Shown here piece after piece: positions 37,889 to 48,468 of a stretch of DNA of 64,000 bases. The notes under the pieces were generated by a model that had not been told where the DNA came from, made no database searches, and saw nothing but the letters and a program-made list of their open reading frames with translations. The DNA is from a bacterium (GTDB lineage: Bacteria > Electryoneota > Electryoneia > Electryoneales > Electryoneaceae). Made by a program: the position numbers and the translations under genes. Position 1 is the stretch's first letter; every line of letters begins with the position of its first letter. The stretch is from positions 8,427-72,426 of the forward strand of contig JAHLLH010000009.1 of NCBI GenBank assembly GCA_020444265.1, given 5' to 3'.

Positions 37889-40270
37889 CTATTTAATGAG
37901 AGTGATCTTCCTTGTCACCACTCTTGAGGAAGTTTCTAGTTTGATAAAATAGGAGCCTGTTGGCCAGGATGAAGCGTCGAGTCGAAGGTTGTAGACACCG
38001 GGCGTTTTTACAGCGTCCAGCAGAGTTGCCATTTCCCGTCCTTGAATATTGTACACCCTGACCTTAACCTTCTCGGTCTTTCCAATGGTGATGGAAATCC
38101 GAGTTTCCGAATTGAACGGATTCGGATAGGCTTGCAGAAGTGTGTGATCTTGTGGATGCAGTGGGATGACTTCATCATCGACCGATACAATTTGTGCCAC
38201 ATCCATGTACATCAAGCCGAGCGCGGTAGATACCCACACTTTTTCGCTGGCCTGATCGTACGTCAGTCCCCTGATTTTAATGAATTGATCGTAGTAGGGA
38301 AGCTCAGACTGATCCGTGTCAAGTCGTTCCCACTGATCCCCTTGATTGGAGACGAGATACATTCCCTCCCTAATATCGAAAGGATCTCCAATTCGTCTGG
38401 ATAGAAGAATATGCGAAGGTGATGTTGGAAGTAATGTAACGCTTGAGGGTTGAAAAATATAGCCTGCGGTCCTGTCCCAAATCCCCTCACTATGACGCCA
38501 CAGACTTCTTGATGCGAACACATAAAAGGATTGATCAGTCGTATCGGCGACTCCATGAATTGGCCAGAGCTGTAGTTGCTCTATCTCTGGGAAATCCATG
38601 TCCTGCCATGTGGCTCCAAAGTCCGTGCTGGAGAAGATGCCATTTGGTGCAAGTGCATAGAGTACATCATCGCCATAGGCGAAGGAGACGACAAATGCCC
38701 ACCCATCCGTTGTGATCCAGGTCTGTCCTGAATCGATCGAGACATCCGTCGTCCAGGATGATTCTAATTCACGGCTTAGCGCGATGATTGAACGATCCGC
38801 TGTCTCGAATAGATCAGGCACAAGCGTCATGCTAGCATGGTTTATACCCGGAGTAAGACTTGTTCCGTACTCGTCCCAGGAGGATCCATTGTCATAACTA
38901 ACGACTGGATGAACGGTTGTAAGTTCTGACTCGACAACGTGTTTTTCACAGAGAGATATTAATTTTGACTGATCTTCCAGAATGACAGGTAACGGGTATA
39001 CAAGAGTGTCGACGGATTCTGGTAAGAGTGAAATTCTCTGCCAATCATTCGTTTCCGATTCATAGAGGTACATCATTCTATCACGTTCACCCCTTGCTAC
39101 GATTCCATTCGTAATAATTTGAAAGTGCATCATTTTGCCAAAGGGAAGTCCAATATTAAATTCTTCCCAGCTGTTCCCGGAGTTATCTGAGGCCCATATC
39201 CCTCGATCCATTGAGCAGATGTACGTTGTTTCGGTATAGGAGTTAACCGAAATTCCTGCGATCACGTTCATGTCTGATGGAAGACCATTTGGATTTCGAG
39301 AAAAGGTTTCCGCGTAATCATTGCTTATGTATACTCCTCGCCCTGTGTTCAGGTAGATTGATCCCCTGACTAGTACAGTGCCATCAGCATGCGGGTCTTC
39401 CACAATTTGTTCAGATAAATTATTGTAGGGTAGGCCAGCATCTGCAGTCGTCCATGAATCCCCCCCATCCAGACTACGAAAGATGGAATCGCAGGCGAAG
39501 TATTCAAGGGGTGGGAACTCGTCATACGAGTGGGACGCCACGGCGACCAGATCACCATTTCCCAGGAAGGTCATGCTCTCAACGGCTGCGCCGGGATGGG
39601 TGATCAGGGTATCCAGATCAAACAGGGGAGACCAAGTCTGATTGAAGTCAGTGGACCTGTAAATGCCGAATTCACGATGTGAGCCAAGGGACAGTCCACT
39701 CAGGTAGAACGTGCTGTCTTGAACGGGATGACGGATAAAGGAAAGTTTCTGTTGGGAGTGATCATCATAGAGTGTGTTTGTCCATGTTTCACCGAAATCC
39801 TCCGAAATACAGATGAAGGCAGCGTTTGTAGCAATTAAGCGGTTGTGATTGTTTCTGTCCACGAGGAGATGATGACTGAGTGAACCCGCATCATGGACCG
39901 GAAAAATTGGATTCCAAGCTTCGCCGTTCATCGTACTAAAAGCCCAAGCCCAACGCTGAGCTGGCGAAAATGACATCATGGCAAAAACGGTGTCCGCATC
40001 TTGGTCGAACGCGACAATTTTGTGAGTTAATCCAATTTTAAATGACTGATCTGGATGAATAAGCTCATTTATCGGCTGCCAGCTCTGGCCAGCGTCATTG
40101 GATTCCCATATCCCTCCGTCTAACAAACCAACGTATTGTCGTGTTCCATCTTCGCTCATCGCAATGGATGAGAAGGCTGGAACAGGACCATTTGTGTTCG
40201 CCCAAGCATACACGGCGAGAGGGATAAGTAACAACGAGGAAAATCCACCAAATCTTAAGAGTCGTCGCAT
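37889..40270 (-). CDS. BNR/Asp-box repeat beta-propeller protein (sortilin/VPS10-like) with a T9SS C-terminal sorting domain, copy 1
   Basis: A signal peptide is present and at least nine S-x-D-x-G-x-(T/S)-W Asp-box repeats follow (SNDAGQSW, SEDFGETW, SLDGGDSW, ...). The C-terminus (YPNPFNSETRISIT...RKITLIK) matches the Por sorting-domain pattern. The product is 793 aa. Confidence 0.8.
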   Translation of the reverse strand: MRRLLRFGGFSSLLLIPLAVYAWANTNGPVPAFSSIAMSEDGTRQYVGLLDGGIWESNDAGQSWQPINELIHPDQSFKIGLTHKIVAFDQDADTVFAMMSFSPAQRWAWAFSTMNGEAWNPIFPVHDAGSLSHHLLVDRNNHNRLIATNAAFICISEDFGETWTNTLYDDHSQQKLSFIRHPVQDSTFYLSGLSLGSHREFGIYRSTDFNQTWSPLFDLDTLITHPGAAVESMTFLGNGDLVAVASHSYDEFPPLEYFACDSIFRSLDGGDSWTTADAGLPYNNLSEQIVEDPHADGTVLVRGSIYLNTGRGVYISNDYAETFSRNPNGLPSDMNVIAGISVNSYTETTYICSMDRGIWASDNSGNSWEEFNIGLPFGKMMHFQIITNGIVARGERDRMMYLYESETNDWQRISLLPESVDTLVYPLPVILEDQSKLISLCEKHVVESELTTVHPVVSYDNGSSWDEYGTSLTPGINHASMTLVPDLFETADRSIIALSRELESSWTTDVSIDSGQTWITTDGWAFVVSFAYGDDVLYALAPNGIFSSTDFGATWQDMDFPEIEQLQLWPIHGVADTTDQSFYVFASRSLWRHSEGIWDRTAGYIFQPSSVTLLPTSPSHILLSRRIGDPFDIREGMYLVSNQGDQWERLDTDQSELPYYDQFIKIRGLTYDQASEKVWVSTALGLMYMDVAQIVSVDDEVIPLHPQDHTLLQAYPNPFNSETRISITIGKTEKVKVRVYNIQGREMATLLDAVKTPGVYNLRLDASSWPTGSYFIKLETSSRVVTRKITLIK

Positions 40271-40432: not shown

Positions 40433-40846
40433 CTAAATCGGGGGAAGTACATTTGCCCAAAGATGGTAGGCACCGCTCCAATTCGAAGCGCCAGCGATGC
40501 TAATCGTCCAATACTGACACCCACCATAGTTCACGCGGACAACATCAGACTGGGCAGGGTTACCATTGCTTGTGGCAGCAAAGCAATAGCCCTCTTCAAT
40601 GTCAGGCATTTTATACAGCGCCCCAGGCGTAAGGCAACCTGCCAGATTGCCAGTTCCTACAGTTCCAGGGACTATTTTGCCTTGACTATCCAATGAGCCG
40701 CCTAACGTGAGAAACGTGCTCGAGTTACTTCCTTGGCCAAGCGATAGGGTAACTGAATCTACGTTTTGCCAGCGTGCTTCCGCAGTTCCAGTGAAGCCAA
40801 TCAGCAAAAGGAGCACTGCCAGGAGTACAATTGCAGGATACTTCAT
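40433..40846 (-). CDS. Hypothetical small secreted protein (137 aa, 4 Cys) in a lower-GC stretch
   Basis: A signal peptide (MKYPAIVLLAVLLLLIGFTGTAEA) is present and no motifs were recognised. Local GC is visibly lower than the surroundings. Confidence 0.45.
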   Translation of the reverse strand: MKYPAIVLLAVLLLLIGFTGTAEARWQNVDSVTLSLGQGSNSSTFLTLGGSLDSQGKIVPGTVGTGNLAGCLTPGALYKMPDIEEGYCFAATSNGNPAQSDVVRVNYGGCQYWTISIAGASNWSGAYHLWANVLPPI

Positions 40847-41013
40847 GATTCACCTCATAGTGTGTTACAACTCATCGAGGCCAATTTCATTTCCGGCCGG
40901 AAGAGACCTCCTGTATAAACTGTTTACAAGTTCGGGGGGGGCAAGAGAAATGCGAGTTTAATGTAAAATAATAATTCAAGACTCCTCCCGGAGGAGATTC
41001 CATTCAACCGTAA

Positions 41014-41037
41014 CGCCCCTGCCTAGCGGCAGGGGCG
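41014..41037 (-). terminator. Terminator hairpin CGCCCCTGCC-TAGC-GGCAGGGGCG downstream of the YeeE-rhodanese gene
   Basis: The stem is a perfect 10 bp. A second small hairpin and a T-rich tract follow on the minus strand. Confidence 0.55.
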
Positions 41038-41065
41038 CAGAATCACCCGGGCAGTGCTTGCCAGA

Positions 41066-42241
41066 TCAGCAGCCGCCTTGGACCTTTTTGATGGTTGGGG
41101 GTGCGACATCGGTGGCGTCGGCCCGTTTCGCGATCTCGTCCAGTTTGCCACCATTGCGTAGGAAGAAGGTCCCCAACATGCCGTCGAGCTGGTCCGGGGT
41201 TTCCATTCCAGTATGGTAGAGGGCATACCCTTCAGTGTAGACCGCTTGACGTTTCGAGTCACCCAGTTCACGGCTGAGCACGGCTGCCTTACGGGCTTCT
41301 TCCTCCGTCGCTCCGTAAAAGAGGTACTCCTTGCCCGGCTCCCGCAGCACGGTACGCCATCTCGCGTCGGCCAGGGAGGCGAGGGGGATGTTCATCGCGG
41401 TGGCAATGTGACCGTTCTCGTAGGCCGCCTTGTCGCGGACGTCGATGATCTTCAGGCTGATGTCCTGCTCCAGCAAGCGCATTGCCACTTCCTCGAGCGG
41501 GATCGTTTCGATCTGCTGCGCTTTTACTTCCCAGCCATCATGGGCGATGGTCGCCAGCGCCTGGGATTTTTTATCCGTCATGACAATCAGGGCGGCGGCG
41601 AGGACGACGGCGACGGCAGCGTAAGCTGCGGGACGGGGCTGGGTCCAGAAGTGACGGATGGGTCGTTTGTTGACACGATCCTCGACAATGGTCGTCGCCG
41701 CGAAGGCAACAATTGCTACCACGGCCACCAGCAGGATGAAGAGGCCACGATTCATACCGAAGGCCTGCGGCACGGTGAGTGGGCCGTAGTTGTCCGCAAC
41801 GAGGAAGTCCGCGAAGAGGGGATAGGCTTCGAGGTAGCCGAAAATGCCGATCAGGGCGCCGAGGATGAAGACCATGCCGTCAATCCGTCCGATGGCCGCC
41901 GAGCAGACACTCGTGCCGGGGCAGAAGCCGCCAAGAATGAAGCCAACACCCATGATCGCCCCGCCGACAAGTGCAGATCGCAGGAAGAGGGGGTTGACGA
42001 AGATAAGGTCGAGGTTGATCAGACCGAAGGTGGCCAGCAGGCTGACCCCGACCATCGCGGTGACACCGGCGGTGAAGAAGACACGCAGCACGACGAAGTC
42101 ATAGCCGTAGAAAAGGCCTGCCAGCTTGCGCGAATCGGAGAAGCCAGCCTGCTCCAGGACAAACCCGAAGCCCATTCCGAGGAACAACGCAATCACCAGA
42201 TTCAGCTCGGGGCTGATCAGTTCAGGGAGATAAGGTCCCAT
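41066..42241 (-). CDS. YeeE/YedE family sulfur-compound (thiosulfate-type) transporter fused to a C-terminal rhodanese-like domain that lacks the catalytic Cys
   Basis: The polytopic N-terminal part carries the YeeE/YedE motif GGFCPGTSVCSAAIG. The C-terminal ~100 aa have the rhodanese fold (IIDVRDKAAYENGHIATAMNIP), but the active-site loop reads YGATEEEA where C-R-x-G is expected. Confidence 0.7.
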   Translation of the reverse strand: MGPYLPELISPELNLVIALFLGMGFGFVLEQAGFSDSRKLAGLFYGYDFVVLRVFFTAGVTAMVGVSLLATFGLINLDLIFVNPLFLRSALVGGAIMGVGFILGGFCPGTSVCSAAIGRIDGMVFILGALIGIFGYLEAYPLFADFLVADNYGPLTVPQAFGMNRGLFILLVAVVAIVAFAATTIVEDRVNKRPIRHFWTQPRPAAYAAVAVVLAAALIVMTDKKSQALATIAHDGWEVKAQQIETIPLEEVAMRLLEQDISLKIIDVRDKAAYENGHIATAMNIPLASLADARWRTVLREPGKEYLFYGATEEEARKAAVLSRELGDSKRQAVYTEGYALYHTGMETPDQLDGMLGTFFLRNGGKLDEIAKRADATDVAPPTIKKVQGGC

Positions 42242-42262
42242 GATATCCTCCAGGGGGTCAGG

Positions 42263-42781
42263 TTAGATCCACAATTTGCGGAAGAAGAAGGCCACGGCAT
42301 ACCCGCTGCCGAAGATGGCCATCATCGTTATGAAACCGCCCGCGCTCAGCACCGCCATCCCGGATAACGCTGCGCCGCTGGTGCAGCCGCGTGCGAACTG
42401 TGCGCCGATACCGAACAATGCTCCACCAATCAGGGCGAAGACGAGCCGTTTACGGGTGGTTGTGTTCGGGCCCTTGTTGGTGATGAAGCCGAGACGGTTG
42501 CTGATCAGGCCGCTGATGAAGCCGCCTGCAACCACTCCACCGAGAAGAAACACCAGCCAGGCCTTCAAGGGGGCCGGATGCGACTGGCTATACTCGGCGA
42601 AAAAGCTGGCTTTGTCCGCATGGGCAGGGGCTATCGTTTCGGTGATCGCAACAACGATGCTCTTCAGGGCCCCGCTCGCACCCAAGCCACGACCGGTGAC
42701 AAAGATGGTGGCGGTCAGCACCAGGCCGAGCAGCACACCAGCGAAATAGGGGTTCATGTAGGGACGAGGTTTGTCGTTCAT
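42263..42781 (-). CDS. YeeE/YedE family membrane protein (single-repeat half-size form)
   Basis: The YeeE/YedE motif (GAQFARGCTSGAALSGMAV) is present on a ~170-aa hydrophobic protein. The start was chosen at MNDKPRPYMNPYFAG. Confidence 0.65.
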   Translation of the reverse strand: MNDKPRPYMNPYFAGVLLGLVLTATIFVTGRGLGASGALKSIVVAITETIAPAHADKASFFAEYSQSHPAPLKAWLVFLLGGVVAGGFISGLISNRLGFITNKGPNTTTRKRLVFALIGGALFGIGAQFARGCTSGAALSGMAVLSAGGFITMMAIFGSGYAVAFFFRKLWI

Positions 42782-42785
42782 GAGA

Positions 42786-43508
42786 TTACTCCTTCGCGTC
42801 GACTGCAAGGACGCCGACTTCTGCGCCTGTGACGGCTTGTTCTCCGTTCGTGGCGATTGCATGCGCCAGCGCAGCCTGGTTCGGATGCTGTTGCAACTCT
42901 TCCTCATCTTCCAGCTCTTCATACCCGGTGATCATCGCCTTCAGGTTGGACAGGACGGTGGTTCCGGTGGTGATGAGGTAGAGATGAGCGATGAGGAAGG
43001 CGGCCAGAGCGAAGGCTCCGATGGTGTGGACCACGGCAACCACTTCCAGCCCACCGATGTTCAGGGTTCCCATTCCCCCAGCCTGCGGGTAGCGGTAAAA
43101 CATGTAGAGCAGGCCGCTGGTCACCATGACCGGGATGACAAGAACCTTGAGGCCGAGGTAAACCAGACGCTGCAACGGGTTCAGCTTGCTCAGTTCCGTC
43201 TTGTGATGCGGGTGCGGTGCATGTTTAAAGATGCCGGTCAGGTAGAAGGCGATCTGGGCACGCAGGTTCTGACGGGTCGGCAGGTACTGACGCCATTCGC
43301 CGGTGGCATAGTGCCAGAAGATGGCGAAGACAATCAGCCCGATGAAGAGATAGGCCGCGATGTTGTGGTAGTGGACGGCATTCTCAAAGCCCATGAAACT
43401 GTACGAGCTGTGGATCTCAAAACCGGTCAGCATCAGGAATCCGATCAGCACGGCTTGCATCCAGTGCCAAAACCGCTCGAAGCTCTTGTAAATTTTGACG
43501 ACTCTCAT
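42786..43508 (-). CDS. Dihaem cytochrome b membrane subunit (Ni/Fe-hydrogenase / FdnI-type cytochrome b, HydC-like)
   Basis: The RxxHW motif (FERFWHWMQA) is present with four TM helices carrying conserved His (HYHNIAAY, HLYL). Its ATG overlaps the TGA of the octaheme gene (TGATG). Confidence 0.75.
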   Translation of the reverse strand: MRVVKIYKSFERFWHWMQAVLIGFLMLTGFEIHSSYSFMGFENAVHYHNIAAYLFIGLIVFAIFWHYATGEWRQYLPTRQNLRAQIAFYLTGIFKHAPHPHHKTELSKLNPLQRLVYLGLKVLVIPVMVTSGLLYMFYRYPQAGGMGTLNIGGLEVVAVVHTIGAFALAAFLIAHLYLITTGTTVLSNLKAMITGYEELEDEEELQQHPNQAALAHAIATNGEQAVTGAEVGVLAVDAKE

Positions 43509-45079
43509 CAGGATTCCCTCCTGTCACGTGCCCATGCAAAGAGACGGACGCTCATGTGGACAAGCACACCGATGATGCTGAGGATCAGGATTGTGCGGCC
43601 CATGAATTCCACCGAAGCGTGCGAGTCACGGCCCGGCATGTAGAAATCGGTAAGGTTGGCAAGACGGCCATTGTCAGGCGTATGGCACTCTTCACAGCTG
43701 ACAGCTTCGTCCGCCTTCGATACCATGTGGTTCACCGGCCAGTACATCTCTGTTTCAACAAAGCAGAAGTTGCCGCTGTAGGGCGCGCCCACATGTTCCA
43801 TGCCCAGTTTCGCCGCGATGTCCCAGTCGAAGTCCTGCCAGTAGCCACCTTCACCCTTCTTCTCTGCGAAGAGTTTCGGCTGGATGATCATGTTGTTTTC
43901 GCAGTCGAATATCTGCTTGGCACGGTGAATCTTCACCGGGATGATTTTCGCATCAGGGTCTGCATAATCGCCGTACAGCGTGTTCATCTTGACCACTTCC
44001 ATCGGGTCGATCACATCGCCGAGGAAATAGTGGTCCGCCGTGCCGTTGAACCAGGTGTACTCCGGCTCGAGGTTCTTTTCCCAGGTGAATTCGCCCTTGA
44101 TCGAGAGGTAGGTGTGGTTGCCATCCTCATCTTCCTCGTGGAAGGGTTCGCCATCCTTTAGACGGCCCGCTTTCGACCAGTCCCAGGAGGTCTTGGTCGC
44201 ATTGACCTTTGCGTAGACCGGGATGTGGCAGGTCTGGCAGGCGACCTTGAGGGTGTGCTCGTTCAGGATGTTTTTCGCGTGCGGTTCGCTGGTATGGCAC
44301 TGGTCGCACGTTACACGGTCCCGGTTCATCGAAGAAACGGAGTAAAGCTTGCCGCTGATCTGGTGCTTGTCGGTGACATGGCAGGCGGTGCAGTTCATGT
44401 CGGTGCCGTCATAGCCCATGTGGACATCAACATCCTGGCCCGAGGTAAGCAAGGCTTCCTCGAGGTCTCCATGTTTGACATTGTTCCCACCACCTGAATA
44501 GAAGTGGCAGGCACCGCAGTTGTCCTTCTCAGGAACTCCGACCGACCGCGCTGCGACACCGAGATCGACAGTCGCCATCGGGTAACCTGCGCCACCGCTC
44601 GCCTTGACATAGGTATCGGACTGATCATGGCAGATGAGGCAGTCAATGTTCTCCTCCACCTCGAAGTCGAAACCGGTGTCAGTCCAGCCATAGCCGGCAT
44701 GGCACTTGGTGCAACTTGTTTCCGACCCGCCAATGCCGATGCAGAAGTTGTTGATTAGATTTTTTTTCCCCACTTCGGTAATGCCACGGCCCGGGATGTA
44801 GGCTTCGCGATCCCAGTTCCAGTGGTTGGATGCCATCACCTCATGGTGACGTTCCGTGTGGCAGGAGATGCAGGTACGTGTGACATCTTGGGGACGCTCA
44901 AACGTTCCCTGCAATGCGGCCAGCTTCGCATGGTCAACACTGGCAATGTGCGGTTTGCTGTGGTCGGCACGAAGCTCTTCCAGGTTGCCTGTGCCCACGG
45001 GAGTGAAGGGGAATTCCATCACCACGAGGATCGCAATCGCAACCGCGAGGAAAAAGAGAACCTTGATGGGCCGGATCAT
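43508..45079 (-). CDS. Octaheme c-type cytochrome with a signal peptide and a C-terminal transmembrane anchor
   Basis: Eight CxxCH motifs were counted (CISCH, CTKCH, CLICH, CGACH, CTACH, CDQCH, CQTCH, CEECH). An N-terminal signal/anchor (MIRPIKVLFFLAVAIAILVV) and a C-terminal hydrophobic helix (RTILILSIIGVLVHMSVRLFAW) are present. Confidence 0.85.
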   Translation of the reverse strand: MIRPIKVLFFLAVAIAILVVMEFPFTPVGTGNLEELRADHSKPHIASVDHAKLAALQGTFERPQDVTRTCISCHTERHHEVMASNHWNWDREAYIPGRGITEVGKKNLINNFCIGIGGSETSCTKCHAGYGWTDTGFDFEVEENIDCLICHDQSDTYVKASGGAGYPMATVDLGVAARSVGVPEKDNCGACHFYSGGGNNVKHGDLEEALLTSGQDVDVHMGYDGTDMNCTACHVTDKHQISGKLYSVSSMNRDRVTCDQCHTSEPHAKNILNEHTLKVACQTCHIPVYAKVNATKTSWDWSKAGRLKDGEPFHEEDEDGNHTYLSIKGEFTWEKNLEPEYTWFNGTADHYFLGDVIDPMEVVKMNTLYGDYADPDAKIIPVKIHRAKQIFDCENNMIIQPKLFAEKKGEGGYWQDFDWDIAAKLGMEHVGAPYSGNFCFVETEMYWPVNHMVSKADEAVSCEECHTPDNGRLANLTDFYMPGRDSHASVEFMGRTILILSIIGVLVHMSVRLFAWARDRRES

Positions 45080-45711
45080 GATGCCCTCCCGGCAGGACCG
45101 TCCGTCTTGGCATCGGTCGTTGGGTTGTTGTATTCGTGGCAAAGCGATTCCAGACGGTCTCGCGAATCGTTCAAGGTCTCTTCGATCGCTACGCGGCAGG
45201 GATCACTTTCGCTCAAGGATGACTGAAGGGTTTCGAGGATGCTGTCAGCCTGTCCCATCCAATCACGGACCTGAGTGAGGACCTGCTGACGGTTGCTGTT
45301 TCGCTCGATCACAACACTCTCGATGCAGCCGCGCGCATGCAGGATGAGGTGATTGACCAGGGTGTCACGCGGGATCTCGTGGCTCTTGGACAAGTCGTTC
45401 AGCATCTGGACCGAGGAACGTTGCAGCACGAGGTTTTTGCGCTGGTTGTAGGCGGTACGGTCGCCGCTCTCGGTCGTTTCGATGCGCTGAAGTATGTCCC
45501 GGACACAGGAGTCGCTGTCCGCACCGATCTTGTTTGGGGCGAGGTCGCTTAGGGCAAGCTCAGCGATGTCACGCGCCTGCACCCCGACCTCTTCGCCCAA
45601 CCAGTTCAGCGCCTCAATCGCTTCCTCGGTCAGGGTGAACGTGGTCCGGACTTCCGGCTCACGTTTCTGGTCCAACAGGGTGCTGAACAGCTCTTTGGTT
45701 GCCATGTTCAT
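45076..45711 (-). CDS. Hypothetical cytoplasmic protein, first gene of the cytochrome operon
   Basis: The 211-aa product has no signal peptide and no recognisable motifs. Its stop overlaps the octaheme start by 4 nt. Confidence 0.45.
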   Translation of the reverse strand: MNMATKELFSTLLDQKREPEVRTTFTLTEEAIEALNWLGEEVGVQARDIAELALSDLAPNKIGADSDSCVRDILQRIETTESGDRTAYNQRKNLVLQRSSVQMLNDLSKSHEIPRDTLVNHLILHARGCIESVVIERNSNRQQVLTQVRDWMGQADSILETLQSSLSESDPCRVAIEETLNDSRDRLESLCHEYNNPTTDAKTDGPAGRAS

Positions 45712-46006
45712 GGTCTACCTACCCGTATTGTGATTTTCTGCACATAAGGTACGTGCAATGAATACGTGAAATCAAGTGCATACTCGGCAGGTGGAGTATA
45801 CGCGATTGTCCGTGTAAAGGAGTCAATGTGGGTAAGGGCGAACGGGGAATAGTGGGAAAATAAAATTGAGGACGAACTAACATTTTTTCATCGAGATTGT
45901 AACACCTTTCACATAATAGGGTTAAGGAAGATTAGTGGGTTCAAGAGGAGGCCTAACCTGATGATGAGGGACGGCTTGGTTGATCGAGGTCGGTGGTGAT
46001 ACACAC

Positions 46007-46044
46007 GAAAAACGGAGAGCCTCCGGTTGACTCGGGAGGCTCCC
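46007..46044 (-). terminator. Rho-independent terminator (GAGCCTCC...GGAGGCTC followed by TCCGTTTTT on the minus strand) after BNR gene copy 2
   Basis: The hairpin and a T5 run lie 40 nt after the stop at 46087. Confidence 0.7.
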
Positions 46045-46086
46045 TGTGATGCCTGGTGAAAGGTGTTGAACTGGTGATGCGGTAGC

Positions 46087-48468
46087 CTACTGAACCAGCA
46101 CGGTTTTCCTCGTGATCTCCCCGACTGGGGTGTGCAAGCGGAGGAAATAGGTACCCGAAGGCCAGTCGTTGGCATCGAGGGTGGTCGTATGATCGCCCGC
46201 TTGCAGGGACTCATTCAACAGAGTAGTAACAAGCCGTCCCTGGAGATCAAATACCGACAACGTGACTTCCGTTGCTTCGGGTACGTTGAACTGGATGCGT
46301 GTATGGCCATTGAACGGATTCGGGTATGCGTCCAGCAGGAGGTGTGAGGAGGGTTGGGCTGGAGATGGGTCTTCGTTGACTCCCACAATGTTCTCGATAT
46401 CCGTATGGACCAGGCCCAGCGGAGTGGAAAGCCAGAGTTGCTCACGCCAGGGGTCGTACTGGACGTTGGTCACGGAGGTGTACTGTTCTTCAAAATAGGG
46501 CGGCATGTTCGCTCTGCCGAAATTGCTCCAGTTCTCCCCACCATCCTGGCTGATGTACATGTTGGTGGGTTGTTGGTTGTTCTGCACGAGTCGTACCAGG
46601 CGGGATGGTGTCCCGGGGATCAGTGCCAATCCTGCTGTAGAACCTGGAGCTGGCCCGAGATCGTTCCAGCCGTTTTCATCGAACCGATAGGTCACATCTC
46701 GTACGATCACATACAGGTCACCGTTCGCGGGATTGATCTCGATGAAGTCCCTGGCTTGGCTGAGATCGTCCGGATGCGGGAAGAAGAGGTTCCCCCAGTG
46801 GAGGCCATTTGTGGTTGAACGAAACACACCATCTCTGTTCACGGCATAGAGCACAGAATCGTTCTGGCAGGTCCTGCTGTACCAGGACCAACCCTCATAG
46901 CTGTTCCAGGTTCGACCAGTATCGACACTCACATCCACAGAAAAGTGATCGGAATCCACCCATCTTGAGATAACCAGACGAAGAAGTGAGGAATCCTGGT
47001 ACACGGACAAGTAAGGGTCGTGCAGGTTGGCGGCGGAGGCTGCTGGAAGTGGGGGGTGAAGCGGCTGTGGTTCGGGATGATCGGGAGTGCTGACCATAGA
47101 CTGGATTTCTCCAGTCGAATCCCCCCGTATCGAGGTCGCTTCAAAGGTGATCGTCCGATCCTCATCCTCGATCAGGAGTGGCAAGGCGAAGCGCACGGAA
47201 TCCGTGGTCGAAGGACGCACAGGGAGCGGCGCCCATTCCTCTTCACCAGAACTGTATGTCGAACCAACCGCGTCTGCCCAGCCTCGCGCAAGAATCCGTT
47301 CTTCCTCGACCGTGAACATTTGCAGACGACCCCTATCAAAACCGGTATCGAACGGTTCCCAGTTTTCGCCACCGTCCATCGTCTGCCAGGCACCATGGCT
47401 GTATGAGGATAACACCGCAACGCCTGTCGATTCATTGATGTCCACATTGCTGACATGGTTCATGCTGAGGGGAAGCCCATTCTCCACCCGTTCAAATGTC
47501 AGGCCATCGTCGAGCGACTGGTAGAGTCCCATACCGATCCAGGTGTCCGCTTCTTGCCAGAGATAGAGTCGGTCGGAGACAGGATCCTGGGCCATCTGGA
47601 ACCCAAAGGCCCGTCGCGGAAGTCCCTCTTCGACGATGGTCCAGTTGTAGCCGCCGTCCTCAGTTCTGAACAACCCATTGAAGCGCACCTGTTCATAGGG
47701 AAACAATCCATTGTACATTGTACGAGCGGATAACAGGATCGTACCGGATTGAAGGACAATCATGTCGGAAAAGAAGGCGTTTTCGAATCCGGTCAACGTG
47801 TCGCTTCGCATCATTTGAGACCAGATGTGCCCATCACTGTCCGAGATGAACGCTCCTGCATCATAGAAGCTCGAGAAACGGTCTGCAGCGGTGTAAAAGA
47901 GGTCCCCATTCGAAGGGTGCTGAACAAGATCGCCCACCACCCAGGGGGTTAAATCCAAGCTGTGTGTTTCCCATGTTTCACCGAAGTCCAAGGAATTCGC
48001 GACATTGGCTGCGGTCAGGTAGAGAAGATGATCCGGATCGGTCCAGTCCGAAAGCAGGAAATGATTGCCGGAACCGACCTCGGGAATGGGGTTGACCCAG
48101 GTCCAGCTCTCACCGGAGGTGGATGTGATCGCGTGATCATACGACCGGAGGTCGGTGAAGCTGGCCTGAACGATCAGCGAGTCCAGGTCAGGATCAATCG
48201 GGTCGAGTTTGTGGACGAGCTTTACATGGGGATTTGCATGTTCCGTAAGGGGTTCATTCGCGGGTAGCCACGTTTCGCCGCCATCCTCACTCTGCCACAA
48301 ACCACCCTGGTAGAGGGCGATGATCAGACGATCCCCATCCACATCGGTCAGGATAGAGCGGTATTCCGCAGAAGGGCCGGGAAGGGTTTCCCATGAGAAG
48401 CTGTGAACAGGAACGAGAAAGCATGCCAGGAGAAGCAATTTTAGAACGGGTTTCATCGTTGACCTCAT
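46087..48468 (-). CDS. BNR/Asp-box repeat beta-propeller protein with a T9SS C-terminal sorting domain, copy 2 (793 aa paralogue)
   Basis: The architecture matches 37889..40270 (SEDGGETW, SLDFGETW, TEDGGYNW, ...). The C-terminus (YPNPFNGHTRIQFN...RKTVLVQ) matches the Por sorting-domain pattern, and the length is identical. Confidence 0.8.
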   Translation of the reverse strand: MRSTMKPVLKLLLLACFLVPVHSFSWETLPGPSAEYRSILTDVDGDRLIIALYQGGLWQSEDGGETWLPANEPLTEHANPHVKLVHKLDPIDPDLDSLIVQASFTDLRSYDHAITSTSGESWTWVNPIPEVGSGNHFLLSDWTDPDHLLYLTAANVANSLDFGETWETHSLDLTPWVVGDLVQHPSNGDLFYTAADRFSSFYDAGAFISDSDGHIWSQMMRSDTLTGFENAFFSDMIVLQSGTILLSARTMYNGLFPYEQVRFNGLFRTEDGGYNWTIVEEGLPRRAFGFQMAQDPVSDRLYLWQEADTWIGMGLYQSLDDGLTFERVENGLPLSMNHVSNVDINESTGVAVLSSYSHGAWQTMDGGENWEPFDTGFDRGRLQMFTVEEERILARGWADAVGSTYSSGEEEWAPLPVRPSTTDSVRFALPLLIEDEDRTITFEATSIRGDSTGEIQSMVSTPDHPEPQPLHPPLPAASAANLHDPYLSVYQDSSLLRLVISRWVDSDHFSVDVSVDTGRTWNSYEGWSWYSRTCQNDSVLYAVNRDGVFRSTTNGLHWGNLFFPHPDDLSQARDFIEINPANGDLYVIVRDVTYRFDENGWNDLGPAPGSTAGLALIPGTPSRLVRLVQNNQQPTNMYISQDGGENWSNFGRANMPPYFEEQYTSVTNVQYDPWREQLWLSTPLGLVHTDIENIVGVNEDPSPAQPSSHLLLDAYPNPFNGHTRIQFNVPEATEVTLSVFDLQGRLVTTLLNESLQAGDHTTTLDANDWPSGTYFLRLHTPVGEITRKTVLVQ

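Follow-up and report, generated by a model that had tools for sequence, protein, structure and literature searches.

The 64,000-nt window analysed here, part of contig JAHLLH010000009.1 (GenBank assembly GCA_020444265.1), contains an operon of five co-directional minus-strand genes (45711..41066). They encode a probable regulator, an octahaem cytochrome c of the Otr family, a cytochrome b, and two proteins that match the two halves of the YeeE/TsuA family of sulfur-compound channels, the second of which carries a rhodanese-like domain lacking the catalytic Cys and ends in a Gly-Gly-Cys (GGC) tail. An earlier note on this stretch, made from its letters, had described four tightly packed genes joined by TGATG and ATGA overlaps, with a fifth gene 21 bp downstream, and direct reading of 40850..46100 gave the same overlaps and spacers. 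The features of the locus are listed in Table 1. The last four genes form a cassette that recurs in the same order in many other lineages.

Table 1. Features of the Otr operon and its borders in the window (aa, amino acids; TM, transmembrane helix)
Feature	Position	Strand	Remarks
CRP-like imperfect palindrome TGTGA-N6-GCACA	45729..45744	.	18-33 nt upstream of gene 1
Gene 1	45076..45711	-	211 aa; probable tandem ribbon-helix-helix regulator with C-terminal helical hairpin
Otr-family octahaem c-type cytochrome	43508..45079	-	523 aa, starts MIRPIK; ATGA overlap with gene 1 stop
HydC/FdnI/PhsC-type cytochrome b	42786..43508	-	240 aa; TGATG overlap with octahaem gene
PmpA-like half-size YeeE	42263..42781	-	172 aa; starts 4 bp past cytochrome b stop
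YeeE-rhodanese protein, last gene	41066..42241	-	391 aa; 21 bp downstream of half-size YeeE
Membrane part of the 391-aa protein, PmpB-like (TsuA N-half H1-H6, H7-like helix, extra TM)	41579..42241	-	
Cys-less rhodanese-like domain of the 391-aa protein, predicted periplasmic	41114..41572	-	PF00581, Foldseek
Lys-rich linker and C-terminal ...KKVQGGC-COOH tail of the 391-aa protein	41069..41113	-	candidate swinging arm
GC-rich 11-bp hairpin, terminator-like, without clear U tract	41013..41038	-	about 30 nt past last stop codon

The octahaem protein matched the Otr profile TIGR04315 over its full length (profile positions 1-440 of 440) with 581.6 bits against a cutoff of 375, in a search that the earlier note had recommended, and it aligned with Otr of Shewanella oneidensis (PDB 1SP3) at about 54% identity over 414 residues (55-468; E 7e-137). 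All eight CxxCH motifs are present and are invariant among 20 diverse homologues. The segment GKKNLINNFC of the window protein aligns with GKKNSINNFC of 1SP3, and its K105 and C113 are likewise invariant in the 20 homologues. We take the segment of 1SP3 to include Lys56, which ligates the catalytic haem, and Cys64 close by, two residues whose roles in Shewanella Otr were reportedly described by Mowat et al. in 2004. The protein was first read as an eight-haem cytochrome with a signal peptide and a C-terminal TM helix, and it does have an N-terminal hydrophobic signal or anchor segment and such a helix; the latter is present in 117 of 120 close homologues, compared with none of 120 Shewanella-type proteins. 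Within this helix (43508..43600), H508 and R512 are invariant in 20 homologues. Judged by its sequence, the octahaem protein is a genuine Otr with a conserved active site and not a new type of cytochrome. The full-length profile score and the Otr active site together rule out both a new kind of octahaem cytochrome and a Cbc-like metal-reduction module, the type of system (Cbc oxidoreductases of metal reducers) to which the pair of cytochromes had been likened.

The cytochrome b matched Ni_hydr_CYTB (PF01292) from profile position 2 to 179 of 179 (E 1.1e-28, 100.7 bits against 30.1) and contains the motif RFWHW, which agrees with its initial description as a dihaem-type cytochrome b with an RxxHW motif. 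Its best NCBIfam match was PhsC, with 102 bits against a cutoff of 204, and it also remained below the equivalog cutoffs of HydC (TIGR02125, 60 versus 121 bits) and FdnI (TIGR01583, 50 versus 116 bits), which indicates a distinct subfamily. Among 26 orthologues, H15 within the motif is conserved in at least 90%, while H33, H48, H66, H99, H161 and H175 are invariant. The four conserved His expected for two b haems are thus present, with H15, H48, H161 and H175 as the candidates; H161 and H175 lie 14 residues apart, presumably the same spacing as in TM4 of FdnI. Three invariant His, namely H33, H66 and H99, come in addition to the four expected haem ligands, and these extra residues, together with H508 and R512 of Otr, could mark a quinol site or an additional cofactor contact. 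The cytochrome b is presumed to be the menaquinol-oxidising anchor of the system.

The last two proteins, initially read as a half-size YeeE and a YeeE-rhodanese fusion, each matched one half of the Sulf_transp family (PF04143, cutoff 27 bits): the 172-aa protein matched profile positions 159-307 with 74.3 bits and represents the C-terminal half (C-half), and the 391-aa protein matched positions 13-202 with 59.6 bits and represents the N-terminal half (N-half). Scores with the NCBIfam TsuA models were far below their cutoffs (26 versus 400 and 16 versus 645 bits), and where proteins of the TsuA/SoxT type are one chain of about 330-350 aa that has three conserved Cys and nine TM, the window encodes separate proteins of 172 and 391 aa. 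In the alignment of the 172-aa protein with Spirochaeta thermophila YeeE (StYeeE), which covers residues 242-329 of the latter, ARGCTSG is placed on AGGCNIG, so C133 of the 172-aa protein corresponds to C293, the outward-facing thiosulfate-binding Cys of TsuA (PMC7449682). C133, in the LD loop, and R31 are invariant; R31 was assigned to the LC loop, and equated with the LC arginine of TsuA, by position only. In the 391-aa protein, C107 lies in an invariant GGFCPGT motif and was equated with C91 of TsuA by eye, by comparison with residues 70-111 of StYeeE. The pair therefore shows the PmpA/PmpB type of split, having separate N-half and C-half genes with one invariant loop Cys each, but not the PmpA/PmpB form of about 130 aa with four TM and no H7, since the N-half retains an H7-like helix and adds an extra TM and an extramembrane extension of 170 aa.

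In the AlphaFold2 model of the 391-aa protein, with a predicted local distance difference test score (pLDDT) of 78, the membrane part consists of helices 11-34, 37-45, 50-71, 84-104, 108-116, 120-148, 165-190 and 202-220. This pattern fits the TsuA plan (PMC7449682), comprising H1-H6 and an H7-like helix, followed by one added TM (202-220). The N terminus of TsuA is outside and its C terminus inside, with H7 flipping the second half relative to the first (PMC7449682). The mean net charges of successive loops of the 391-aa protein, calculated for 46 homologues, are -0.9, +0.9, -1.1, +1.0, -1.0 and +1.7, with 0 after the last TM. An N-out topology is predicted, with the chain leaving the membrane on the outside after TM8, so that the rhodanese domain and the GGC tail would both be located outside. 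For the 172-aa protein, net loop charges of +1.2, -0.4, +2.9, +1.0 (the re-entrant LD loop) and +2.0 fit an N-in/C-in topology. The two proteins would thus have opposite orientations, which is the arrangement needed to rebuild the inverted repeat of TsuA.

The extramembrane part of the 391-aa protein matched Rhodanese (PF00581) with 38.6 bits against a cutoff of 22.2. Following the last TM, the AlphaFold2 model shows a rhodanese fold (224-347), a long helix (354-376) and a low-confidence tail (377-391), and Foldseek matched the model to rhodanese domains at probability 1.00 with root-mean-square deviations of 1.5-1.7 A, including that of the Cys-less Alr3790. The latter, the closest solved structure, reads YGAGDEQ at the aligned loop and also has no Cys there. 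The replacement of the active-site Cys (YGATEEEA), already noticed when the locus was first read, extends beyond the window: its active-site loop is FYGATEEEA, and no Cys occupies the catalytic position in any of 47 aligned orthologues. Two features had gone unremarked, the invariant GGC tail and the predicted periplasmic side of the domain. A tail of the form [KR][KR][VI]xGGC(x0-2)-COOH terminates 65 of 67 orthologues of the 391-aa protein. The residues G389, G390 and C391 do not vary, in contrast to the Lys-rich linker before them, and apart from C391 no Cys of the protein outside the membrane part is conserved. Just one of 511 window reading frames of at least 60 aa, that of the YeeE-rhodanese protein itself, has a GGC-type end, and among 1315 open reading frames (ORFs) of related loci nearly all that have this tail encode rhodanese proteins linked to the cassette, one stray ORF being the exception.

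In each of five loci (L030, L033, L037, L043 and L053), a gene for a double-rhodanese protein (357-376 aa) with a GGC end separates the cytochrome b gene from the YeeE genes. The one at L030 (L030:11931-13010) combines a lipoprotein-type signal with canonical active-site Cys residues and a VQGGC tail, and four of these five loci add a 203-aa GGC-tailed protein after the cassette (L030:14801-15427). Periplasmic placement of the rhodanese domain and tail of the 391-aa protein is predicted from the TsuA topology and the alternating loop charges, and the lipoprotein-like signal of the double-rhodanese protein points the same way. The C391 tail is a candidate for a sulfur-carrying swinging arm. It resembles the canonical arm motif of SoxY, VTIGGC (PMC11237559), but the window proteins gave no SoxY or SoxZ family match in Pfam or NCBIfam and the carrier domain is rhodanese-like; the GGC protein is not a SoxY, and the likeness is limited to the arm and presumably convergent.

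The conservation of this arrangement was assessed in a one-genome-per-species scan, which found at least 586 octahaem relatives; the best 80 loci were retrieved, and 68 of these had at least 3.3 kb of sequence downstream of otr. In all 68, otr, the cytochrome b gene, the C-half gene and the N-half/rhodanese gene follow each other in this order on the same strand, and the other 12 loci, cut by contig ends, hold as much of the cassette as fits. The arrangement is far beyond chance. The earlier note had allowed for the outcome that homologues of the two cytochromes would never be found beside YeeE/YedE genes elsewhere, and the neighbourhood survey that it proposed found them together at every one of the 68 loci. 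Among the carriers are Bacteroidota (Mariniphaga anaerophila DSM 26910, Saccharicrinis, Draconibacterium and Prolixibacteraceae), Ignavibacteriota, Melioribacteraceae, Kapabacteria, Chlorobiota, Acidobacteriota, Holophagales, Fibrobacteria, Delongbacteria, LCP-89, Zixibacteria, Balneolales-like bacteria and candidate phyla, as well as metagenome-assembled genomes labelled Chromatiales, Planctomycetales or Chloroflexota. The nearest relatives of the window locus (69-92% identity) have the same five genes with different flanking genes.

Searches at the protein level were made from both ends of the cassette. The first, with the octahaem protein, gave 6,403 proteins at E <= 1e-10 among 8,000 candidates scored, and the search with the 391-aa protein gave 2,286 proteins at E <= 1e-5, also among 8,000 candidates scored. 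Both Sulf_transp and Rhodanese are present in nearly all of the 120 matches listed for the latter, and the three genomic contexts inspected from this side, in Rhodohalobacter sp. 614A, a Zixibacteria genome and Anaerophaga thermohalophila, contain the same cassette. Shewanella-type Otr proteins (445-486 aa) form a pure clade in the neighbour-joining tree, and no cytochrome b, YeeE halves or rhodanese were found at the soluble Shewanella-type otr loci examined. In Shewanella and Marinobacter loci (L087:3694-7404, L089:3900-7383), otr follows genes for a monohaem cytochrome c and a DUF3373 protein, and, in keeping with this, SO_4142 of Shewanella is annotated as a monohaem cytochrome c. The otr gene of Malonomonas, also of the Shewanella type, stands alone.

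At three loci, a second operon adjoins the Otr cassette (L045:3409-9547, minus strand; L081:3188-9468; L059:14614-20155). It encodes a PhsA/PsrA-like molybdoenzyme exported by the twin-arginine translocation pathway (best NCBIfam match PhsA, 496 bits, below the cutoff of 694), a PsrB-like 4Fe-4S protein and an NrfD/PsrC anchor (PF03916, E 1e-42). Downstream of these genes, L045 and L081 encode another C-half, a 200-aa N-half ending after H7 and two rhodanese-like proteins with an N-terminal hydrophobic segment; a GGC end is present on one of the two in L045 and on both in L081. In L059, the second operon includes an N-half, but no C-half ORF was called, and a single rhodanese-like protein ends in EGC. 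The occurrence of the module with two unrelated periplasmic reductases of sulfur families is the strongest argument that it handles sulfur and works on the periplasmic side.

No Pfam or NCBIfam family matched the protein encoded by gene 1 of the window, which is in line with its first designation as a hypothetical cytoplasmic protein, although a more specific role is suggested by its fold. In the AlphaFold2 model (pLDDT 89), two strand-helix-helix units (E20-27/H29-42/H46-55 and E90-97/H98-111/H115-) precede a helical hairpin with long helices, and a fold search of the PDB gave at best weak similarities (E about 0.1), to DndE and to chains of the F-plasmid relaxosome. An exhaustive HMMER search delineated a family of about 116 representative clusters of 180-230-aa proteins; three of 46 family members, the window protein not among them, showed weak matches to ribbon-helix-helix families of Pfam (two to RHH_1 and one to RHH_3). 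Upstream of otr this family occurs only in L001-L005, the window's own lineage. Gene 1 probably encodes a tandem ribbon-helix-helix DNA-binding protein acting as a local regulator, as the model suggests, and its position is consistent with this role, because other lineages have regulators at the same place: the gene directly upstream of otr is MerR-like with a Cys-rich C-terminus in 23 loci and MarR-like in 7 (e.g., L009:106-585 and L006:9442-9900). In a few Bacteroidota, sigma-54 response regulators are encoded after the cassette.

The CRP-like palindrome to which the earlier note drew attention upstream of gene 1 is indeed present, but it was rejected as an operator on account of its chance-level count and poor conservation. 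TGTG-N8-CACA occurs twice in the 64-kb window against an expectation of 1.0, and at least twice in 27 of 100 shuffles; the palindrome is kept only in the 92%-identical relative L003 and is absent upstream of the orthologue in L004, L001 and L005. Another upstream element, GAGTATGCACTTGATTTCACGTA (45763..45785, minus strand), is kept in L003 and, slightly changed, in L004, whose Otr is 71% identical. From its sequence conservation this element appears to be a better operator or promoter candidate than the palindrome.

The gene preceding the operon is closed by a terminator-like hairpin at about 46025..46013, and a promoter-like consensus match was found at 45925..45896. The hairpin that follows the last gene gave a predicted folding energy of -32.2 kcal/mol (RNA fold of 41000-41066, z = -2.4), so that hairpins after the last gene and before gene 1 bound the operon as a unit at both ends. 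Two longer reading frames were rejected, the octahaem ORF from TTG 45142 and the half-YeeE ORF from ATG 42922, since homologues begin at ATG 45079 and ATG 42781, respectively, and each of the long forms overlaps the upstream gene. Two plus-strand ORFs, 41213..42367 (384 aa) and 42771..43643 (290 aa), cover the YeeE and cytochrome b genes in antisense and were taken as by-products of GC-rich coding on the opposite strand. The operon is flanked by two minus-strand genes (37889..40270 and 46087..48468), both encoding 793-aa BNR/Sortilin-like proteins with type IX secretion sorting domains and F510_1955 glycosylhydrolase-like matches; similar genes also flank the cassette in locus L003. The two flanking genes place the organism in the FCB (Fibrobacteres, Chlorobi and Bacteroidetes) group. 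A 137-aa ORF (40433..40846, minus strand) with an N-terminal signal-like segment and no family match lies past the terminator-like hairpin and is probably outside the operon. A 134-aa ORF is found at the equivalent place in L003.

Several elements of the cassette have counterparts in known systems. Otr of Shewanella oneidensis MR-1 (SO_4144, 1SP3) belongs to the same family and shares the eight CxxCH motifs and the conserved Lys56 and Cys64, but its own form is shorter, lacks the C-terminal TM, falls in a separate clade and has no cytochrome b, YeeE or rhodanese partners. In CbcL of Geobacter, a single fused polypeptide for metal reduction, and in HydABC and FdnGHI, which send electrons to quinone, a HydC/FdnI-type dihaem cytochrome b is likewise combined with a periplasmic partner having its own TM; in the window, however, this partner is a separate catalytic Otr, and the electron flow is presumed to run from quinol to substrate. 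The concept of a rhodanese-fold carrier is known from Sud of Wolinella succinogenes, a soluble periplasmic protein with a canonical active-site Cys that hands sulfur to the quinol-linked PsrABC, and the three loci described above pair the GGC-rhodanese/split-YeeE module with a PsrABC-type enzyme. Unlike Sud, the window domain has no active-site Cys, its conserved Cys is C-terminal, and it is tethered to the membrane.

The published case closest to the first half of the cassette is that of Thermosulfurimonas dismutans (TDIS_1882/1883) and Ignavibacteriae bacterium Ch128a, where Otr is encoded beside a multi-TM cytochrome b (b561). Such pairs were interpreted as a quinol-linked tetrathionate or nitrite reductase (PMC4911364, PMC7509429), but these descriptions end at two genes and include no YeeE halves, pseudo-rhodanese or GGC tail. 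With TsuA/YeeE and its partner TsuB/YeeD (E. coli; Spirochaeta thermophila, 6LEO and 8K1R), the window pair shares PF04143, the equivalents of C91 and C293, a loop Arg taken as the LC Arg, the predicted helix plan and the opposite orientations of the halves; it differs in being encoded by two genes, in lacking a C22 equivalent and a YeeD/TusA partner, and in having an extra TM and a rhodanese domain outside. For PmpA/PmpB of Serratia sp. ATCC 39006, described in relation to SoxT, a heterodimer of an N-half and a C-half protein has been proposed, each having a single conserved Cys (PMC11582611). The PmpAB proteins are about 130 aa long without H7 and occur in pigment and alcohol-metabolism loci, whereas the window N-half keeps an H7-like helix, adds a TM, a rhodanese domain and the GGC tail, and is encoded with its partner beside a respiratory reductase. 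In SoxYZ, the carrier ends in a flexible Gly-Gly-Cys arm (VTIGGC(GG)), as does the predicted periplasmic carrier of the window; the latter has no homology to SoxY or SoxZ, and its arm is attached to a Cys-less rhodanese tethered to a membrane channel. A divergent soxY-S3/soxZ pair adjoins otr in lucinid symbionts (PMC11237559), which independently hints at a Cys-arm carrier as a partner of Otr.

No description of Otr in a cassette with YeeE/YedE or another thiosulfate transporter was found in the open-access literature. The statement in the earlier note that the combination was not known as a described system therefore needs to be divided: the Otr family and the pairing of Otr with a cytochrome b are already known, while the link to a split YeeE channel and a GGC pseudo-rhodanese appears to be undescribed. 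The same appears to be true for the reuse of the split-YeeE/GGC module with Psr-type reductases, for which the open-access literature likewise yielded no description.

The earlier note had proposed a quinol-oxidising module of cytochromes c and b for a sulfur compound, tied to YeeE/YedE transporters. This proposal is supported by the Otr family membership and by the strict synteny in both search directions, including the 68 of 68 loci, and it is from these that we infer the function itself. With middling confidence, based on the sequences and their genomic context, we suggest that the locus may encode a membrane-bound respiratory reductase for tetrathionate or a close polythionate or sulfane-sulfur compound, to which a module for periplasmic sulfur carriage and import is attached. 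Of these compounds, tetrathionate is the likeliest substrate; the tetrathionate/thiosulfate couple has a potential of about +198 mV, and tetrathionate induced otr 36-fold in sediment Acidobacteriota (PMC8528874).

In such a system, menaquinol would be oxidised by the four-helix, two-haem cytochrome b, as its family suggests, and electrons would pass through the eight Otr haems to the Lys-ligated active-site haem on the periplasmic side, whose surrounding residues are conserved. The C-terminal TM of Otr, with the invariant His508 and Arg512, would attach to the cytochrome b in the manner of the small-subunit helix of hydrogenase (HydA/HydC) and formate dehydrogenase (FdnH/FdnI). The 172-aa and 391-aa proteins may assemble into a heterodimer that recreates the inverted-repeat TsuA/YeeE channel, each half contributing one of the Cys residues that are essential in TsuA. 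On the periplasmic side, the dead rhodanese with its flexible, Lys-rich Gly-Gly-Cys arm could act like the arm of SoxY or like Sud. The arm Cys would bind sulfur covalently, for instance as a Cys-S-thiosulfonate formed from tetrathionate or as a persulfide, and this sulfur would be exchanged both with the active site of Otr and with the channel Cys that faces outwards. Thiosulfate or sulfane sulfur would in this way enter the cytoplasm for assimilation, further metabolism or sensing. Gene 1, judging from its predicted fold, may serve as the local transcription regulator in this lineage.

A more far-reaching generalisation may be put forward only tentatively. The tethered Cys-less rhodanese with its GGC tail might represent a new class of periplasmic covalent sulfur carriers, analogous to SoxY and Sud but built on a different fold, and together with the split YeeE it might constitute a portable module for unrelated quinol-linked sulfur reductases, shuttling sulfur between the enzyme and the cytoplasm. 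The same reading, held with the same reserve, would have the GGC-rhodanese/split-YeeE module widespread among the Bacteroidota, Ignavibacteriota, Acidobacteriota and candidate FCB phyla of sediments and the subsurface.

A number of observations weigh against the proposal of a quinol-linked polythionate reductase with a sulfur carrier and channel. The substrate of the anchored Otr is unproven by homology, because nitrite and hydroxylamine are further in vitro substrates of Shewanella Otr (Atkinson 2007, cited in PMC4911364 and PMC11237559), and Caldithrix abyssi, with an Otr gene that may or may not be of the cassette type, did not grow by tetrathionate respiration (PMC5317091). As for the channel, the equivalent of the TsuA residue C22 is absent from the 391-aa protein, in which the LA loop reads LEQAGFS. 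Single-sequence, profile and Foldseek searches of the PDB with this protein returned rhodanese matches only and no YeeE structure for the TM part, so that the YeeE assignment of this half rests on Pfam, motifs and the helix plan. The topology of both half-proteins is itself a prediction from the TsuA plan and loop charges. No YeeD/TusA-like (TsuB) cytoplasmic partner was seen in the cassette at the loci inspected, and this partner is essential for E. coli TsuA (PMC11582611). Finally, the survey of gene order drew on the best 80 of the at least 586 octahaem relatives.

Two rival explanations are variants of this general picture. The split channel and the Cys arm might be a sensing device, in which trace import would switch on the Otr operon via a cytoplasmic regulator. 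SoxT1B, a member of the YeeE family, was reported to be a signal-transducing importer for a cytoplasmic repressor (PMC11582611), and a gene for a cytoplasmic regulator (MerR-like, MarR-like or ribbon-helix-helix) is located immediately upstream of otr in many loci. However, the channel genes are everywhere inside the structural operon while the type of regulator varies, which fits a structural partner better than a matched sensor, and the module accompanies Psr-type enzymes as well. We consider a sensing role rather unlikely, although most of the data agree with it and only the flux sets it apart. It is similarly doubtful, in our estimate, that the true substrate of the anchored Otr is carrier-bound sulfur (arm-Cys-S-S-SO3- or arm-Cys-Sn-), reduced in a manner resembling a reversed SoxAX reaction or Sud-Psr, with the channel just disposing of the product. 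Thiols react spontaneously with tetrathionate to form S-thiosulfonates, periplasmic sulfur reductases are the only enzymes with which the invariant, predicted periplasmic GGC arm was seen, and Cys64 is conserved beside the active-site haem; the association of otr with soxY-soxZ in lucinid symbionts (PMC11237559) can also be counted in favour of this idea. Yet soluble Shewanella Otr reduces free tetrathionate without any carrier (Mowat 2004, as cited in PMC11237559 and PMC8528874).

Three other explanations fit the data poorly. It is very improbable that the cassette handles selenium, for instance by reducing selenite or a selenosulfide and importing reduced selenium via the YedE-like proteins: the matches of both half-proteins to the selenium-linked YedE/FdhT model of NCBIfam (E 5e-4 and 8e-6) and of the 391-aa protein to the rhodanese/DsbD-like selenoprotein TsoB are weak (19-25 bits against cutoffs of 350-805), and although a YedE-like protein is cited in PMC11582611 as transporting selenium in Methanococcus, the surroundings of the cassette showed no genes for selenium utilisation at the loci inspected, and both the association with PhsA/PsrA-like enzymes and the induction of otr by tetrathionate point to sulfur. 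A nitrite or hydroxylamine reductase, or a detoxifying enzyme, for which the adjacency of sulfur transporter genes would be unrelated, could be proposed from the in vitro activities of Shewanella Otr mentioned above and from the listing of Otr as a possible nitrite reductase in PMC7509429; such a role has very little likelihood in view of the tight synteny with the YeeE halves and the rhodanese-like carrier across phyla at 68 of 68 loci, the presence of the accessory module beside Psr-type sulfur reductases, and the lack of nitrogen-cycle genes consistently linked to the cassette in the loci inspected. The module might also operate in the oxidative direction, converting periplasmic thiosulfate to tetrathionate and passing electrons through the cytochrome b to the quinone pool; in vitro, multihaem enzymes of this type can often be run both ways, and the arm of the carrier is similar to the one in the oxidative Sox system. 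The potential of menaquinone, the quinone expected in these lineages, is well below +198 mV, so that quinone reduction driven by thiosulfate would be uphill. Given this position of the tetrathionate couple, and given that otr expression rose when tetrathionate was added (PMC8528874), oxidation is hardly to be expected.

Ever since the structure of Otr was solved, its function in the cell has been a matter of uncertainty, and genome papers annotate the enzyme loosely. The invariable presence of a sulfur channel and a Cys-armed carrier with the anchored Otr, throughout a large clade widespread in the environment and at every genome locus checked, constitutes independent genomic evidence for a sulfur role and offers a handle on the physiological function of the enzyme; the observation is far more general than a single window suggests. 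For the proposed membrane-bound polythionate reductase, the cassette defines a concrete four-protein complex in cultured Mariniphaga, Anaerophaga, Saccharicrinis and Rhodohalobacter. If the GGC pseudo-rhodanese is a covalent carrier, it would be a new element in periplasmic sulfur trafficking and would bear on the turnover of tetrathionate, thiosulfate and polysulfide, intermediates of the sulfur cycle, in the anoxic sediments where these lineages abound.

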